Source: Desulfatiglandales bacterium
Lineage (GTDB): Bacteria > Desulfobacterota > DSM-4660 > Desulfatiglandales > Desulfatiglandaceae
Length of the DNA stretch: 64,000 nucleotides
Assembly (NCBI GenBank): GCA_963666345.1
Contig: OY762721.1
Span: forward strand, 448,001-512,000
Direction: 5' to 3'
Position 1 is the stretch's first letter, and the number at the start of each line of letters is the position of its first letter. Made by a program: the position numbers and the translations under genes. Of this stretch, positions 28,017-34,467 are shown piece after piece. The notes beneath the pieces are model-generated. The model saw only the letters and a program-made list of their open reading frames with translations, did not search any database and was not told the origin of the DNA.

Positions 28017-29084
28017 TTACTTGTATCCCCTTCCTGTCACCTTTGCATACTTTTCGCCAAGGCTGATTGCATCCTCAAGAATCTGGCGGGCGTTTTTAAA
28101 ACCTTTCGCCTCCATATCTGACACCCATTTTTCTCTCAAAGGCATAACCTTCTTTGCCCAGAGGGCCCTCTCCGCATCAGGCAGTTCATAAAATTCATGC
28201 CCCTTTGATTTCATCCAGGCTGAATCCCCTGCAGCCCCTTCATCAAGGGTCTTTCCGCTTATTACGGCAAGTTTTTGCCCTGTTGTTTCTTTCATTATCT
28301 TTTTAAGATCATCAGGAAGAGATGCCCAGACCTCAGGATTGGCACCGGCCCAGAACGGTCCTACAAGCAGGTCTACGATCGTATGGTATTTTGCTGCATC
28401 CGTTATCTTGAACGATTTTACCGGTGCAAGAGGACAGAGCACGCCTTCAGCCATGCCTCTTTGAAGCGCCAGGTATGAATCCGGCGGCTGTACCTGAATC
28501 GGGTTGGCTCCCAGCATCTTCATGATTTCGATGAGTTTCGGGCTCCAGCAGAGGATCTTCATGCCTTTGAGGTCGTCAAGATTCTTCACGAGCTTCTTTG
28601 TGGTGTGGAGCTGATATGTGGCGCTGGTCCACTGCCAAAGGATCTCCACCCCCTTGTACTCATTTCGCCACTCAGGATACTTGGTATAAAGATCCCAGAT
28701 TACCAGTGCACCGGCTTCAGCGCTCGGAACCATCAGGGGAAGCTCCATGACCTCTGAAATGGGAAACTTACCGGGATTCAATCCGTTGTAATTGGCTCCT
28801 ATATCCAGGATTCCGTCAACAGTGGAATCAAAATTGTCCTTTGAAGGACAAAGTGTGTTGGGGTTGAAATATTCGATATTAAGTCTGCCTTTGCTAGCCT
28901 CCCTGATCCTGTCGGCCCATGGAATCCATCCGTTTTTAACGGTCGGATGTTTGTCAAAGTAGGCGCTCGTAAAACTCAGATCAAACTTCTTTTCTCCGGC
29001 CAGAGACGGAGACACCCCGGCCGTAAAGACCAAAAGCCCCGCAATAATGGTTACAACCATAGCACTCATAAATCTTTTACTCAT
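28017..29084 (-). CDS. TRAP transporter substrate-binding protein DctP
   Basis: Signal peptide, GILDIG, PGKFP..EVMELP, LDDLKGMKI, YLALQRG. Confidence 0.92.
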   Translation of the reverse strand: MSKRFMSAMVVTIIAGLLVFTAGVSPSLAGEKKFDLSFTSAYFDKHPTVKNGWIPWADRIREASKGRLNIEYFNPNTLCPSKDNFDSTVDGILDIGANYNGLNPGKFPISEVMELPLMVPSAEAGALVIWDLYTKYPEWRNEYKGVEILWQWTSATYQLHTTKKLVKNLDDLKGMKILCWSPKLIEIMKMLGANPIQVQPPDSYLALQRGMAEGVLCPLAPVKSFKITDAAKYHTIVDLLVGPFWAGANPEVWASLPDDLKKIMKETTGQKLAVISGKTLDEGAAGDSAWMKSKGHEFYELPDAERALWAKKVMPLREKWVSDMEAKGFKNARQILEDAISLGEKYAKVTGRGYK

Positions 29085-29194: not shown

Positions 29195-29210
29195 AGCAAG
29201 GTTCATGCCA
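29195..29210 (-). promoter_or_regulatory. Sigma54 (-24/-12) promoter of the TRAP-dsr operon
   Basis: Minus strand TGGCATGAACCTTGCT; adjacent to a sigma54 activator gene. Confidence 0.8.
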
Positions 29211-29370
29211 GAAACCACCCAGACGTGTATCCAATTGAATTTTATATTATTTTCCGGATATTCTGCAGAAGTGTGGTAACAAGAGACAACAAGGTGGGAC
29301 AAAATCGCGCATCAAGGCATAATAAAAGCAGCCTCAATTCACTGAAAATACAGCTTAAAAATCAGTTGAG

Positions 29371-31212
29371 TCAATTTGTCTCAATTTCGGGAGAAACAAC
29401 CCCGAATTTTTTCATTTTTCTGAACAGGGTCTTTCTTGGAATACCCAGAATAGCGGCAGCCCTGCTCCTGTTCCAATTGGTATTTGCAAGGGCCTCTTTT
29501 ATCATCATTTTCTCAAGGGATTCAATGGCATCTCGCAGATCCCGGCCCTTTTCAACCGACACCGGATCTCCGGAGTCTTCAAACGCCTGCATGGATATAC
29601 CTTTGCCGATATTTCGCATAAAATCGACCTTTCCAACAGTCAGATACCTGTGGAGCGCGTTTTGAAGCTCCCTGACATTTCCCGGCCAGTCGTAATTATA
29701 AAATGCCTCAAGCACGCGACCCGGGATGTCGGACAGCATCTTTTCCTGGTCCTGCTGCCTTAGAAAATGGTCGATAAGGAACGGGATATCCTCCCTTCTG
29801 CATCTCAGAGGCGGGATGTCTATCGGAATCACATGTATCCTGTAAAAGAAATCGGAGCGCATCAAGCCCCTTTTCACATGTTCATTCAGATTCCGGTTTG
29901 TGGCGGCCACGACACGAAAATCGGATTTTTTCGTCTCAGTTCCCCCCACGGCTGTGTAACCGCTCCCTTCTATCGCGCGAAGAAATTTCACCTGTATAGC
30001 CTGGCTCAGTTCCCCCACCTCATCCAGGAACAGGGTACCCTTATCCGCCAGATCGAGGAATCCCTCCTTGTTTCTGTAGGCCCCTGTAAAGGCACCTTTT
30101 CTGTGTCCGAAAAATTCGCTTTCAAGGAGCTGCTCAGGTATTGCCCCGCAGTTTACAGGAACAAAGGTACCGTTTCTCCGTTCACTCATCTCGTGGATCG
30201 CCTTTGCAACCAGTTCCTTCCCGGTTCCCGACTCGCCGTAGACAATAACACCCGCTTCCGATGAAGCCGCCTGCAGGATAAGCTTGTAGACCTTGTTCAT
30301 GGAACTGCTTGCCCCTACGATGTCCGACAATCGGTAACGATCCTTCATCGAAGACTTCAGCTGAATGTTCTCCCTTTTGAGACGGTTTGCCTCTGCCTCC
30401 AGGGCCTTGACCTGAGATCTGTTTTCGGTAATGTCGATTACTGTGCTCAATACGGCAGGATACCCCTCCCACTGGACACGGTTGGGATGACCCTCAACCC
30501 ATATTTCCCTGTCATCCTTGGTAATGCAGGGCCACCTCAACACCCTCAGATCCGATTCACCCTTTTCAATAGCTCTTATGGTATCCCTGAACCGCCCCTT
30601 TTCATCCTCTCTTATGTTTATTCCCGTGTCCCCTCCTATAAGTTCTTTCCTGTCCTTAAATCCGAATATCTTTGCAAAGGCCTCATTTACAAGCACAAAT
30701 TTGCCTTTTTGCATCAGGGCGACCCCGTCAGGCACATTTTCGGCCAGTATCCGATAACCCTCAAGGGACTGCATGAGGGCGGTTTCAAAATGCTTGAGCC
30801 TTGTAATATCCAGAAACGTCTGTACGGCCCCGATTATTGTCCCGTCGAATTCAAATATAGGGGCGGCGATGAAATGGAGATACCTTGCCTTGCCGCCAAC
30901 ATTGCTGAAAAATCCGCTTGCCTCCCACGCATGGGGAATGATATTTGATCGGGCTATATTTCCATCCCTGTAATGGGTAAGGATACCGTTTCTGTCATGC
31001 TCTACAATGAGGTCGGCAAGAAGCGGACGTTTTTTCTCATAAAACGGCTCCCATTGACGCTCCGTCCCTATCATCACCTCCGCCGGCCTTCCGGTCAGGT
31101 GTTCACAGGCCCTGTTCCAGCGCAATATCTTGTGATCTCTTCCGATCGCAAACTGCGGACCTGGCGAGCATTTTATTATTCCCTGATCGATTACCATGTC
31201 ATCTATTTTCAT
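29371..31212 (-). CDS. Sigma54-dependent activator (PAS-PAS-AAA+-HTH)
   Basis: Two PAS-like domains, GESGTGKE, GAFTGA, LFLDEVG, WPGNVREL, Fis HTH. Confidence 0.95.
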   Translation of the reverse strand: MKIDDMVIDQGIIKCSPGPQFAIGRDHKILRWNRACEHLTGRPAEVMIGTERQWEPFYEKKRPLLADLIVEHDRNGILTHYRDGNIARSNIIPHAWEASGFFSNVGGKARYLHFIAAPIFEFDGTIIGAVQTFLDITRLKHFETALMQSLEGYRILAENVPDGVALMQKGKFVLVNEAFAKIFGFKDRKELIGGDTGINIREDEKGRFRDTIRAIEKGESDLRVLRWPCITKDDREIWVEGHPNRVQWEGYPAVLSTVIDITENRSQVKALEAEANRLKRENIQLKSSMKDRYRLSDIVGASSSMNKVYKLILQAASSEAGVIVYGESGTGKELVAKAIHEMSERRNGTFVPVNCGAIPEQLLESEFFGHRKGAFTGAYRNKEGFLDLADKGTLFLDEVGELSQAIQVKFLRAIEGSGYTAVGGTETKKSDFRVVAATNRNLNEHVKRGLMRSDFFYRIHVIPIDIPPLRCRREDIPFLIDHFLRQQDQEKMLSDIPGRVLEAFYNYDWPGNVRELQNALHRYLTVGKVDFMRNIGKGISMQAFEDSGDPVSVEKGRDLRDAIESLEKMMIKEALANTNWNRSRAAAILGIPRKTLFRKMKKFGVVSPEIETN

Positions 31213-31267
31213 TTTCCGTTATTTCCGTTTTTCTAAAACCATGCCTGCCCTCGAACTGAACAGACAC

Positions 31268-32308
31268 TCATAGTTTTACCATAGCCCTTGAAATCGCTTT
31301 AAGTGTCGTTTCAATGTCTTTTGGACCTATCTTGTAATGTGTCACAGCCCTGAGCGATTTGGAGCCTAGAGCCAGCACGCGCACCCCCTCCTTTTCGAGC
31401 ATTTCAACCAGAAGACCGGCATCCGCTCCATCTTTTGAGATATCAAAAAAGACTATATTGGTCTTGACAGAAGACGGATCAAGCTCAAGTCCCTTGATGC
31501 CTGAAATGCCGAGGGCAAGTTTGTGTGCGTTTTCATGATCCTCATGCAGCCTTTCAACCATCTCATTGAGGGCGACGACTCCGCATGCAGCAAGGATTCC
31601 CACCTGCCGCATACCCCCGCCTACCACCTTTCTGCATCTTCTTGCCCTCCTTATAAAATCCTCTGTTCCGCATACAAGAGATCCCGCAGGCGCACACAGT
31701 CCTTTACTGAGGCAGAATGCGACCGAATCGGCCGGCACAACCAGCTCCTCGACTGAAACATTCAGGGCCTGGGCGGCGTTGAATATACGGGCACCGTCCA
31801 CATGGAGCTTCAGGCCTGTTTCCCTTGCAAAATCTCCCACCTTTTTCATGTAAGAGGGACCCAGAGGTGAACCGTTACACCGATTATGTGTATTTTCAAG
31901 CACTATCAACCTGCTTACGGGGAAATGGACATTCTCCTCCCTTATTGCGTGATCCAGGTCCTCAATCCTTATTTTCCCGTCGGCCTGATTCGGAACGGTA
32001 CGGGGATGGATTCCTCCAAGTGCCGCACATCCGCCCTGCTCATAATAAAAGATATGAGACTGATCCCCCAGGATCATCTCGTCACCCCGTCCACAGTGTG
32101 CAAGTTCGGAAACAAGATTTGCCATGGTGCCGCTTGCAACAAAAAGTGCGGCCTCCTTACCTGTCAGTTTTGCCGACATTTCTTCAAGTCTGTTGACAGT
32201 GGGGTCTTCGCCGAATACATCATCCCCGATTTCAGCGTTGTACATGGCCTTTCTCATTGCAGTTGTCGGCTCGGTGATCGTATCCGATCTGAGGTCGATC
32301 ATACGCAT
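31268..32308 (-). CDS. ltaE: Low-specificity L-threonine aldolase
   Basis: DLRSDT, GDDVFGEDPT, SGTMAN, LENTHN, HVDGARIFNA, CLSKGL. Confidence 0.95.
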   Translation of the reverse strand: MRMIDLRSDTITEPTTAMRKAMYNAEIGDDVFGEDPTVNRLEEMSAKLTGKEAALFVASGTMANLVSELAHCGRGDEMILGDQSHIFYYEQGGCAALGGIHPRTVPNQADGKIRIEDLDHAIREENVHFPVSRLIVLENTHNRCNGSPLGPSYMKKVGDFARETGLKLHVDGARIFNAAQALNVSVEELVVPADSVAFCLSKGLCAPAGSLVCGTEDFIRRARRCRKVVGGGMRQVGILAACGVVALNEMVERLHEDHENAHKLALGISGIKGLELDPSSVKTNIVFFDISKDGADAGLLVEMLEKEGVRVLALGSKSLRAVTHYKIGPKDIETTLKAISRAMVKL

Positions 32309-32606
32309 CTGTCTTCTCCTTATTAACGGTCTTAATATATTGCAAATTTAGTGAAAAACTCATTCGATCAGGAAAGACTATGGAAAAGGCCCTTATCTGT
32401 CAAGTTTTGAACCGGCGCCGATTTAAAGATACCCATGTGGTTTCATGCCCAAAAGCACAAGGCAGGAAAGCAGATTCCACGGTTCGAAATGACGCTCCCG
32501 CCCATTTTTTCATTCCATCGGTTGTCAGGGCACAAGCGCTCGAGTCTAAGCATCTCCCTCCCCAAATAGCAAACACATGCCCGTAGCAAACATGTCTTTT
32601 ACAAAC

Positions 32607-32623
32607 TGTCAGATTTATTTACA
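32607..32623. promoter_or_regulatory. Candidate enhancer-binding-protein site (TGT-N11-ACA)
   Basis: TGTCAGATTTATTTACA, ~110 bp upstream of the sigma54 promoter at 32732. Confidence 0.5.
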
Positions 32624-32731
32624 CCCCAATTTTTCTTTTTGGCTCAGTCCCTGCTGCCTATATCTCCCATAAGTGTCTGTTCAAAAGTGCTTTTCATGTT
32701 TTTTGGTGATGATTAAACGGCATTTATATTT

Positions 32732-32747
32732 TGGCATATTTTTTGCT
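32732..32747 (+). promoter_or_regulatory. Sigma54 (-24/-12) promoter
   Basis: TGGCATATTTTTTGCT (GG-N10-GC). Confidence 0.75.
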
Positions 32748-32758
32748 TAGTATAAAAC

Positions 32759-33070
32759 ATAACTGAAAAGGCTTGGATCCTGGCCGGATGGCATACAGGC
32801 AAGATCAAGGCTGAAAAAAATCGGCTTCCTGGATGGTCGCTAAGTTTCAGACCGGATTGCAAATGAAAGAGAAACGCCATGACCTCCTTGCGGCACAAAG
32901 GCGCCATCACTGGAAGCCGAACATCAAATACTGAACCCCTGTTGGATTTTCAATTAACAGCTTAATCACTAGGTGTGGCCTTCTATACTAATCACAGGTG
33001 GATCTTTATTTGTCTCATCAGTTCACGGCGCCTGCTTATTCTCAATGGGTAAGCAGGCGTCCGTGTCTTT
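32759..33070 (+). ncRNA. Candidate sigma54-dependent structured small RNA
   Basis: Lies between a sigma54 promoter and a long terminator hairpin; internal stems; 7 GGA motifs; no convincing ORF. Confidence 0.5.
33024..33070 (+). terminator. Intrinsic terminator-like hairpin
   Basis: CACGG-CGCCTGCTTATTC/GGGTAAGCAGGCG-t-CCGTG then TCTTT. Confidence 0.7.
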
Positions 33071-33142
33071 GCAGGTGTCATCACCTAATTGGGTCATAAT
33101 CAACCATGACTGAAGATTTCGGCCCAGCCTTGGGCACCCCCG

Positions 33143-33228
33143 CAAGACTTTGGAATCAAGGCGCCGACAACCTACGGCTTAGGCGTATGACTAATGGGCC
33201 CGCGCATTACCTCTTGACGGTGGATCAG
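33143..33228 (+). repeat. Short degenerate intergenic repeat, copy C
   Basis: CAAG-N11-AAGGCGCC, TATGAC, GCGCAT, GGTGGATCAG blocks shared with copy A. Confidence 0.5.
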
Positions 33229-33351
33229 AATCTTTAATTGGCGCTTGTCTGAAATTGCGGTTTATGCTAAGTAATCCAGGATAGATTCTTATTGTCAGGC
33301 CTTTTCTTTATATCTCCAAAACCTTATAAAAGACGCATCAAGGGGGGCCTC

Positions 33352-34254
33352 ATGGATGACAAAGAAAAAGGTATGGTTCTTGCCTCATTTGCCGGAGATT
33401 CTCTTTCCCTTGCTGCTCACTGGGTCTATGACACAAATACGATCAAAAGGAATTTCGGCAGAATAGAATCCTTTTTTAAACCCGCATCAAACTCCTTTCA
33501 CCCCACCAAAGAGGATGGTGAATTCACCCATTACGGTGACCAAACCCTCGTGCTTCTTGAATCCCTTGCTGAAAAGAGAGGATTCGAACTCAAGGACTTC
33601 GCTCAAAAATGGAGGTCGTTCTTTGAAAACTACCGGGGGTATTTCGATCAGGCGACCAAGGTAACCCTCAGCCGTTTTTCATCGGACATGCCTCCTGAAG
33701 AATCAGGTTCCCCCTCGGACGACCTTGGCGGAGTGTCTCGAATCGCTCCTCTTGTGTACGCATACAGGGATGATCTGAAAGGTCTTATGAATGCCTCCAA
33801 GGCTCAAACAGCAATGACGCACAGGGACCCTATCGTCTTGAAAAGTGCCGTTTTTTTCTCACGCCTTACCTGGCAGATTCTTAAAGGCGACACACCTACC
33901 CATGCGATCGACAAGATAGCAAGAGAGCACTTTGAGCAATCCCCGATATACAACTGGGTGCAGATAGGGCTCGCCTCAAAGGATATGGACACTGTTTCCG
34001 TCATATCCAATTTCGGCCAGAGCTGTCATACAAGAGAGGCCCTTCCCGGAGTCATACATATCATTGCCAGACATGAAAAAGACCTAAAAGAGGCCCTGAT
34101 TCAGTGCGTGATGTCGGGTGGCGACAGTGCGGCAAGGGCGATGATCGTCGGCATGGTCCTGGGGGCCCATCTGGGCTGTGGACCGATACCTGCAGATTGG
34201 ACCACAGGGCTAAAGGCGAGAGAAAAAATATTGGACCTGTTGGAAAGGATTTGA
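33352..34254 (+). CDS. ADP-ribosylglycohydrolase family protein
   Basis: GDSLSL..HW.Y, G..THYGDQ, MTH, GGDSAARA...G.VLGA..G...IP..W. Confidence 0.85.
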   Translation: MDDKEKGMVLASFAGDSLSLAAHWVYDTNTIKRNFGRIESFFKPASNSFHPTKEDGEFTHYGDQTLVLLESLAEKRGFELKDFAQKWRSFFENYRGYFDQATKVTLSRFSSDMPPEESGSPSDDLGGVSRIAPLVYAYRDDLKGLMNASKAQTAMTHRDPIVLKSAVFFSRLTWQILKGDTPTHAIDKIAREHFEQSPIYNWVQIGLASKDMDTVSVISNFGQSCHTREALPGVIHIIARHEKDLKEALIQCVMSGGDSAARAMIVGMVLGAHLGCGPIPADWTTGLKAREKILDLLERI

Positions 34255-34467
34255 AAACCAGGCATGCATATCTTTTGACAATCCCCCCTGTTCCTTTTCA
34301 TTGACAAAAAAGGCCATCCCCTGCAAGAATAATTGTCCATAAGAAATCAAAGGCCCCTGGATTCCGCCTCTAAGTCGGAAATCTGCGTTTGGCTGAAAGA
34401 CCGCTATTGTTACTGAAATTTGCTATATTTTGAGCCTCCCGCTCAGCAATGTCATGGAGAAAAGCCT

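Follow-up and report, generated by a model that had tools for sequence, protein, structure and literature searches.

Small regulatory RNAs (sRNAs) whose expression depends on sigma-54 are known in several phyla, among them GlmY, CrcZ and NrsZ of the Gammaproteobacteria, and orphan sRNAs are common. The Qrr sRNAs are reported to be driven by the activator LuxO together with sigma-54 (10.1101/2021.07.01.450815), and for Desulfovibrio vulgaris one account of the sigma-54 regulome lists four non-coding RNAs (PMC4641369) and another names, as the target of the activator DVU0679, an sRNA encoded beside the gene for that activator (PMC3333781). Beyond these two D. vulgaris studies, the literature found on Desulfobacterales holds no description of a sigma-54-dependent sRNA, nor of the RNA treated here, and riboregulation in marine Desulfobacterales is almost unexplored. 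The RNA in question lies in a 1043-bp gap between genes (32309-33351) in a stretch of 64,000 nucleotides (nt) of the genome of a marine, sulfate-reducing Desulfatiglandales bacterium (assembly GCA_963666345.1, contig OY762721.1), called the window below, and its abundant core spans 32772-32972. A sequence-only reading had taken it for an undescribed sigma-54-dependent regulatory RNA, GGA-rich, structured, ~310 nt long and possibly a sponge for the protein CsrA; the first of these claims is upheld by a transcript, low read-through, broken reading frames and the lack of a matching Rfam family.

We give about an even chance to the account in which the locus is a stand-alone gene for a lineage-restricted non-coding sRNA that depends on sigma-54 and an activator and acts in trans by base pairing. 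The RNA is an orphan addition to an established class of sigma-54-dependent sRNAs and no surprise in kind. Its likeness to Dv_sRNA2 of D. vulgaris Hildenborough, which is under DVU0679 in a likewise sulfate-reducing member of the Desulfobacterota with many activators, lies in a -24/-12 promoter near an activator gene and is drawn from the published description; unlike the D. vulgaris RNAs, it has a PAS-AAA-HTH protein as its candidate activator, and no relative was found outside its own lineage. With Qrr, GlmY, CrcZ and NrsZ it would share a dedicated activator that, together with sigma-54, drives a small regulatory RNA, whereas here there is no Rfam match, Hfq was not found in the genome and the gene is a single copy without paralogues; the Qrr RNAs are also shorter than its ~200 nt. 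RNAs of the RsaE/RoxS type mask Shine-Dalgarno sequences with C-rich loops and without Hfq, and an exposed C/U-rich CCUCC loop complementary to GGAGG, in an Hfq-less genome, makes this a possible mechanism here and nothing further, as the RNA has one such loop, no enriched target and no sequence relation to that type. The locus combines a clean activator-dependent promoter with signs of strong expression in natural sediment and an Hfq-less genome, and so offers a tractable entry to two questions, namely what signal is read by one of the ~30 sigma-54 activators and how Hfq-less sulfate reducers use sRNAs.

Probable sigma-54 promoter and downstream transcript

The strict pattern TGGCA[CT]-N5-TTGC[AT], which the promoter element of Table 1 matches, occurs 28 times in the genome (4.16 Mb, a single contig, 96.7% complete) against about 8 matches expected from composition, and 22 of the 28 fall within the 18% of the genome that lies outside open reading frames (ORFs) of at least 150 amino acids. 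Because of this excess and this intergenic bias, the intergenic match, which had already been claimed as a promoter, is very likely a genuine one, as judged from its letters and their genome-wide count. It has the -24 GG and -12 GC at the correct spacing, and the genome encodes the proteins needed to use it: one rpoN, and enhancer-binding proteins, whose sigma-54 interaction domain is matched 30 times, all but one of these matches being strong (29). One of these proteins is the activator at 29371-31212, whose gene lies 1.5 kb from the promoter in an operon read divergently from it. From the usual -12 spacing, transcription would presumably start near 32759. A sigma-70 reading of the same place (TTGGCA-N14-TATAAA, 32732-32757) was rejected, as the spacer is too short and a promoter scan gives no call.

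Two candidate activator sites lie upstream. The TAGCAAACA 9-mer has 11 copies in the genome, and the tandem pair ahead of this promoter is the sole one. The TGT-N11-ACA box that had been pointed out upstream is indeed present, but such boxes are not rare (15 in the window against 8 expected), and the dyad alone is not significant. No motif common to this upstream region and that of the neighbouring dctP promoter emerged (score 11 against a shuffle mean of 10.5), and the TAGCAAACA repeat has no counterpart at the dctP promoter.

Evidence for the transcript comes from public sequencing runs, nine of which were found to contain the stretch in whole or in part, including a single RNA library; contigs of four runs were placed on 31200-34300 (3.1 kb) at 80% likeness. 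In the marine-sediment metatranscriptome (X9) the depth is 0 in the four bins over 32344-32759, 140 and 160 in the bins over 32760-32967, and 2-4 in contigs over 33015-33165 and 33352-33557. The high-depth contig, of 236 letters and depth 160.5, matches 32772-32972 at ~94% identity (12 substitutions, 1 gap), and carries 13 letters before and 23 behind that match nothing at the locus. These end letters we take to be Illumina adapter, so that the cDNA inserts would have ended at 32772, which is the first base of the 5' hairpin, and at 32972. In our reading, a close relative (~94% identical) makes RNA here that is far more abundant than the mRNAs of the neighbouring genes; its transcription begins just to the right of the sigma-54 promoter, and its abundant form lacks the hairpin at 33024-33065, over which the X9 depth is ~3 against 160 over the core. 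The transcript that the sequence-only reading called for is thus found, as contig evidence in a relative, and transcription beyond the core is low (depth 2-3), as it had also asked; its ~310 nt have to be cut to an abundant species of ~200 nt without the hairpin.

The promoter and the RNA can also be followed in DNA. A contig of a second run, X7, carries eight of the nine listed X9 substitutions and is unbroken over 32425-32972, so that in that lineage the RNA region is contiguous with DNA that includes the promoter position; contigs of a third, X8, cover parts of the stretch only. The differences considered throughout are the best-supported ones, 9 of 12 for X9 and a minority for the others, with 204 further differences beyond them. 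One of the nine X9 substitutions falls in 32772-32860 and eight in 32861-32933, and the 5' half of the core is the least changed stretch listed across the 3.1 kb compared; by this comparison it looks the more conserved half. One X7 contig stops at 32972 and the next begins at 32977, the same spot at which the X9 RNA fragment ends; a polymorphism between strains or an effect of the assembly could account for this break.

Fold, coding potential and relatives

Several elements of the proposed fold are found again: the GCC-GGAU-GGC hairpin appears in all folds, the long-range stem is predicted with its pair 32836-32904 at a probability of 0.98 (C32904>T, in all three relatives, leaves this pair as G-U), and the TAATCAC(T)AGGTG direct repeat stands at both sites, with the abundant fragment ending inside its first copy, at 32972. 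The central domain stands out a little, 4 of 200 shuffles being as good. The 5' stem CTTGGATC/GATCAAG holds in the 312-nt fold and is lost in shorter folds, which prefer CUUG/CAAG. As a whole, the RNA does not earn the term structured, since the core, once the terminal hairpin is left off, is no more stable than shuffled sequence: the 312 nt including the hairpin reach z -3.58, mostly because of the latter, as against -0.54 for 32759-32972 and -1.01 for 32772-32972, with -0.29 for the minus strand.

The hairpin itself, placed by a terminator scan at 33027-33061, is unique in the genome. As an intrinsic terminator it has a strong stem and a weak T tail (CGTGTCTTTG; tail CGUGUCUUUG), and the abundant RNA stops at 32972, before the stem; of the long terminator hairpin that had been claimed, the stem stands. 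Its probable role is to end the primary transcript, or else to attenuate transcription before the gene at 33352 is reached.

The loop that could pair with messages is CCUCC (32883-32887), which sits in a predicted pentaloop with P(unpaired) 0.93 and copies the anti-Shine-Dalgarno of 16S rRNA. The surrounding ACCUCCUU 8-mer has 347 copies on both genome strands, which gives a chance of ~1% for 214 nt, and it was spotted post hoc.

Coding potential was judged by applying the listed natural differences codon by codon. A 23-codon ORF had been put forward as the only one present; ORFs of 28 codons, of 46 codons with a GTG start and of 65 codons on the minus strand exist as well (Table 1). The conserved translated ORF that would have spoken for a message did not appear, the small ORFs being broken in relatives, and on this ground the small-protein readings were rejected. 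By this test the whole 1-kb gap appears non-coding.

Searches for relatives point to a narrow distribution. Rfam 15 gives no match at gathering score over the whole window, so that no known family accounts for the RNA, and at E up to 10 the region 32300-33400 yields three noise matches to eukaryotic families only. BLAST against 60 relatives and 104 other genomes of the family returns chance-level matches of 17-76 nt only; 19 candidate loci were fetched, none aligning over more than 76 nt, and three of them carry a sigma-54-like motif, the BLAST match at one (L053) being the motif itself. With stricter filters, a single-sequence covariance model built on the predicted structure finds only its own locus among 105 family genomes, and a metagenome scan with the downstream protein returns one identical locus and six distant ones, with no close relative. 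The promoter is absent (0 of 29 loci) from the 1.3 kb ahead of the downstream gene's relatives in other genera (two further loci, which are the genome's own, were kept out of the 29). At 29 loci that hold a relative of the aldolase-like gene, the flanks of 540-1500 bp contain no such promoter and no activator or glycohydrolase gene (0 of 29); relatives of the flanking genes in other genera are at most 60-68% identical. No paralogue was found behind 11 other sigma-54 promoters with long non-coding stretches, or by short-word BLAST of the own genome. The only relatives seen are three sediment or sludge variants (X7, X8 and X9), about 85-94% identical, and in the stand-alone account the RNA family would be confined to one species-level lineage.

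Competing accounts of the RNA

In the stand-alone account, an enhancer-binding protein bound upstream, at the TAGCAAACA repeat or the TGT-N11-ACA dyad, would let sigma-54 polymerase start near 32759 on the plus strand, and the primary transcript would run toward the hairpin at 33024-33065. Trimming would leave the stable ~200-nt species 32772-32972, which starts at the foot of the 5' hairpin, and a small fraction of transcription would continue into the ADP-ribosylglycohydrolase gene at 33352. The RNA would act in trans, its exposed single-stranded segments pairing with the ribosome-binding regions of mRNAs in a genome in which no match to Hfq (PF17209) was found. The best candidate for such a segment is the CCUCC loop, which could mask Shine-Dalgarno sequences.

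Several points weigh against this account. The data are contigs with one depth figure each, from which strand, true ends and level are not readable, and PCR duplication of a single fragment could have swelled the depth of 160; the start is predicted 13 nt before the 5' end at 32772, and there is no terminator at the 3' end, 32972. Conservation of the promoter and motifs is uncertain, as the listed differences take in 9 of the 12 X9 substitutions and leave 204 differences outside. The fold energy of the core is ordinary (z -0.5 to -1.0), no compensatory base-pair change (no double-sided change) occurs among the nine listed substitutions, and within the core a predicted pair would be lost through 32876 G>A; the changes at 32925 and 32933 would break pairs of the 312-nt fold only, with partners beyond 32972. 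A target scan of 3591 crudely defined translation-start regions scored 36 at best, where shuffled controls average 35.5 and reach 40; as no target rises above these controls, the mechanism is still a guess. Whole-length duplex folding for targets returned only meaningless full-length duplexes. Nor was any sigma-70-like promoter found on the plus strand between the hairpin and 33352, which bears on the next account.

The rival that survives best, though we regard it as unlikely, is a leader or attenuator in cis: the promoter would serve the ADP-ribosylglycohydrolase operon from 33352 onward, the hairpin would be a conditional terminator, and the 200-nt piece a stable decay product. The lack of a recognisable promoter for the 33352 gene and the low signal past the hairpin, from X9 contigs that lie across and past it (33015-33165) and in the gene (33352-33557), are the reasons for keeping it at this level, and the very strong stem with its poor T tail would suit an attenuator. 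However, the depth drops ~50-fold before the hairpin is reached, and 52 nt separate the end of the abundant piece from the hairpin downstream, which a terminated leader would be expected to retain; no riboswitch or leader family matches, and the downstream gene lacks such a promoter in all 29 loci from other genera. The same absence of an Rfam match and of the promoter in those loci led to the rejection of a riboswitch or curated cis-leader.

A protein sponge, in which the six GGAU motifs titrate CsrA or another RNA-binding protein, was the suggestion of the sequence-only reading. There is a likeness to CsrB, CsrC and RsmX/Y/Z, in that the RNA is abundant and non-coding, has several GGA with one in a hairpin loop, and comes from a genome that encodes csrA. 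The promoters of the CsrB/Rsm RNAs are of the GacA/UvrY type, and the one at 32733-32748 is instead of the sigma-54 type. Whereas CsrB and CsrC are described with 13-22 GGA-type sites (PMC6546359), the 312 nt here hold 7 GGA, mostly predicted paired and none of them as A(N)GGA. The sequence-only reading had the count right (7 GGA, 6 as GGAU), and its caveat that some fall in stems applies to most of them; the description as GGA-rich does not hold, as the density is that of the background (dinucleotide shuffles give 5.4 GGA, P 0.25; at least 7 in 40% of genomic 312-nt windows). GGAT, at 6 against 1.4 in shuffles (P about 0.0005) and reached by 1.1% of genomic windows, is enriched nominally, having been chosen post hoc among 256 tetramers. 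The A(N)GGA or CAnGGA context is found for 0 of 7, and 2 of 7 are predicted accessible at P(unpaired) above 0.8 (32786 and 32854), the GGA of the hairpin at 32783-32792 having values of 0.89-0.98; in the 312-nt fold the others range from 0.0 to 0.34, one of them (32775) rising to 0.62 when 201 nt are folded.

The genome's one csrA (81 bits) lies within a flgK-flgL-csrA-fliW flagellar cluster; a check for csrA and fliW had been advised, and both are found, adjacent. FliW antagonises CsrA in Campylobacter jejuni and Bacillus subtilis (PMC4894983, 10.1101/2020.07.02.184341), in C. jejuni without antagonising sRNAs as that account describes it (PMC4894983), and it is reported to interact with CsrA in Geobacter (PMC13407953). 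The flagellin leader of the same genome has the canonical sites CAAGGAC and CAAGGAGGA, unlike those of this RNA, and the CsrB/CsrC/Rsm covariance models of Rfam 15 give no match, at gathering score or at E up to 10. Background GGA density, no A(N)GGA, little accessibility and the pairing of csrA with fliW thus undo the suggestion: the sponge reading is a resemblance that fails three of four testable defining features. It is because of the GGAU excess, with a hairpin loop and an open internal loop each predicted to present one GGAU in an abundant RNA, from a genome with csrA and without a match to Hfq, that we keep it at all, as improbable. The specific form in which the GGAU-repeat RNA is a sigma-54-controlled decoy for FliW-partnered CsrA or another RNA-binding protein is more doubtful still; if true, the FliW-type branch of the Csr system would have its first RNA antagonist, and control of that system in marine sulfate reducers would lie with an enhancer-binding protein.

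The flagellin leader (L092:1420-1492; G000:C1 about 2307630-2307705) is an observation in its own right. It carries GGCAAGGACGCC, and AUCAAGGAGGAU over the Shine-Dalgarno, and csrA-fliW lies 70 kb from it, behind flgK-flgL, which by gene order and leader motifs would make a textbook FliW-CsrA-flagellin partner-switch arrangement in a Desulfobacterales genome.

A minus-strand origin is in our view as improbable as the sponge; the RNA would then be either a long 5' leader of the aldolase-like/activator operon, which is read divergently, or an antisense RNA, and the sigma-54 motif would be unrelated to it. The contigs carry no strand information, and a perfect AAGGAGG followed by ATG stands on the minus strand at 32879-32891, but such a leader would need to extend through 32344-32759, over which X9 has a depth of 0, and with 12-24 mismatched letters per ~100, the X9 contigs covering the aldolase gene come from other organisms. 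Moreover, no sigma-70-like promoter was found on the minus strand to the right of 32972, each of the three relatives has the minus-strand ORF interrupted, and the one-sided end letters, if they are adapter and the library was dUTP-stranded, weakly favour the plus strand.

Transcriptional noise, a young transcript without function or the mRNA of a very small protein have a similarly slim chance: restriction to one lineage, weak structure and the absence of a found target would fit them, against which stand the strong activator-dependent promoter, the high depth in situ, the 5' half as the least changed listed stretch of 3.1 kb and the breakage of all ORFs in relatives. A repeat or mobile element was dismissed on the unique locus and its ordinary base composition, and 6S RNA on the lack of a match to RF00013 in the window or whole genome and on predicted folds that are not rod-like.

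Features and neighbourhood of the locus

Table 1. Features of the intergenic RNA locus and its surroundings, in window coordinates
Feature	Position	Strand	Basis or remark
PAS-AAA-HTH sigma-54 activator gene	29371-31212	minus	same operon as Beta_elim_lyase gene
Beta_elim_lyase gene (threonine-aldolase-like)	31268-32308	minus	left-hand operon of the gap
68-codon ORF	32380-32586		2-nt deletion in relatives (at 32558); no Pfam family
Tandem direct repeat TAGCAAACA-N8-TAGCAAACA	32567-32592		141-166 bp upstream of promoter; candidate activator site (upstream activating sequence, UAS)
TGT-N11-ACA dyad (TGTCAGATTTATTTACA)	32607-32623		candidate activator site
Sigma-54 -24/-12 promoter TGGCATATTTTTTGCT (TGGCAT-N5-TTGCT), very likely	32733-32748	plus	sequence, genome-wide pattern count
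RNA core (abundant cDNA)	32772-32972	plus	X9 contig; strand from promoter and depth 0 in 32344-32759
GCC-GGAU-GGC hairpin, GGAU in loop	32783-32792	plus	seen in every fold
Central domain, predicted long-range stem 32821-32836 / 32904-32920	32821-32920	plus	-34.3 kcal/mol, z -2.3
23-codon ORF	32863-32934		ATG to ACG in X7, X8 and X9
28-codon ORF	32879-32967		stop at codon 19 in relatives
ACCUCCUU	32882-32889	plus	identical to 8 nt of own 16S rRNA 3' end (GGATCACCTCCTTTCT)
Direct repeat TAATCAC(T)AGGTG, TAATCACTAGGTG / TAATCACAGGTG	32964-32976 and 32989-33000	plus	sequence
46-codon GTG ORF	32973-33113		sequence
18-bp hairpin	33024-33065	plus	-31.1 kcal/mol, z -8.5, equalled by 0 of 200 shuffles
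43-codon ORF	33106-33237		1-nt deletion in relatives (at 33137)
65-codon ORF		minus	stop at codon 17 in all three relatives; no Pfam family
ADP-ribosylglycohydrolase gene	33352-34254	plus	right-hand flank of the gap

The activator gene is followed immediately by another match to the strict sigma-54 promoter pattern (TGGCATGAACCTTGCT, 29195-29210, minus strand), which stands 110 nt ahead of a DctP-type TRAP binding-protein gene (28017-29084), with its own TGT-N11-ACA dyad (29272-29288) 60-80 bp upstream. This second promoter is probably the primary target of the neighbouring activator.

Elsewhere in the genome, seven further intergenic matches to the strict promoter pattern, at about 1085867(-), 1253276(-), 1279012(+), 1839381(+), 2369948(+), 2751720(+) and 3168049(-) of G000:C1, are followed by 370-940 nt that lack an ORF of at least 100 amino acids by crude ORF calling. 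None of the seven stretches resembles the RNA at 32772-32972, and they could hold further sigma-54-driven RNAs, long leaders or small genes.

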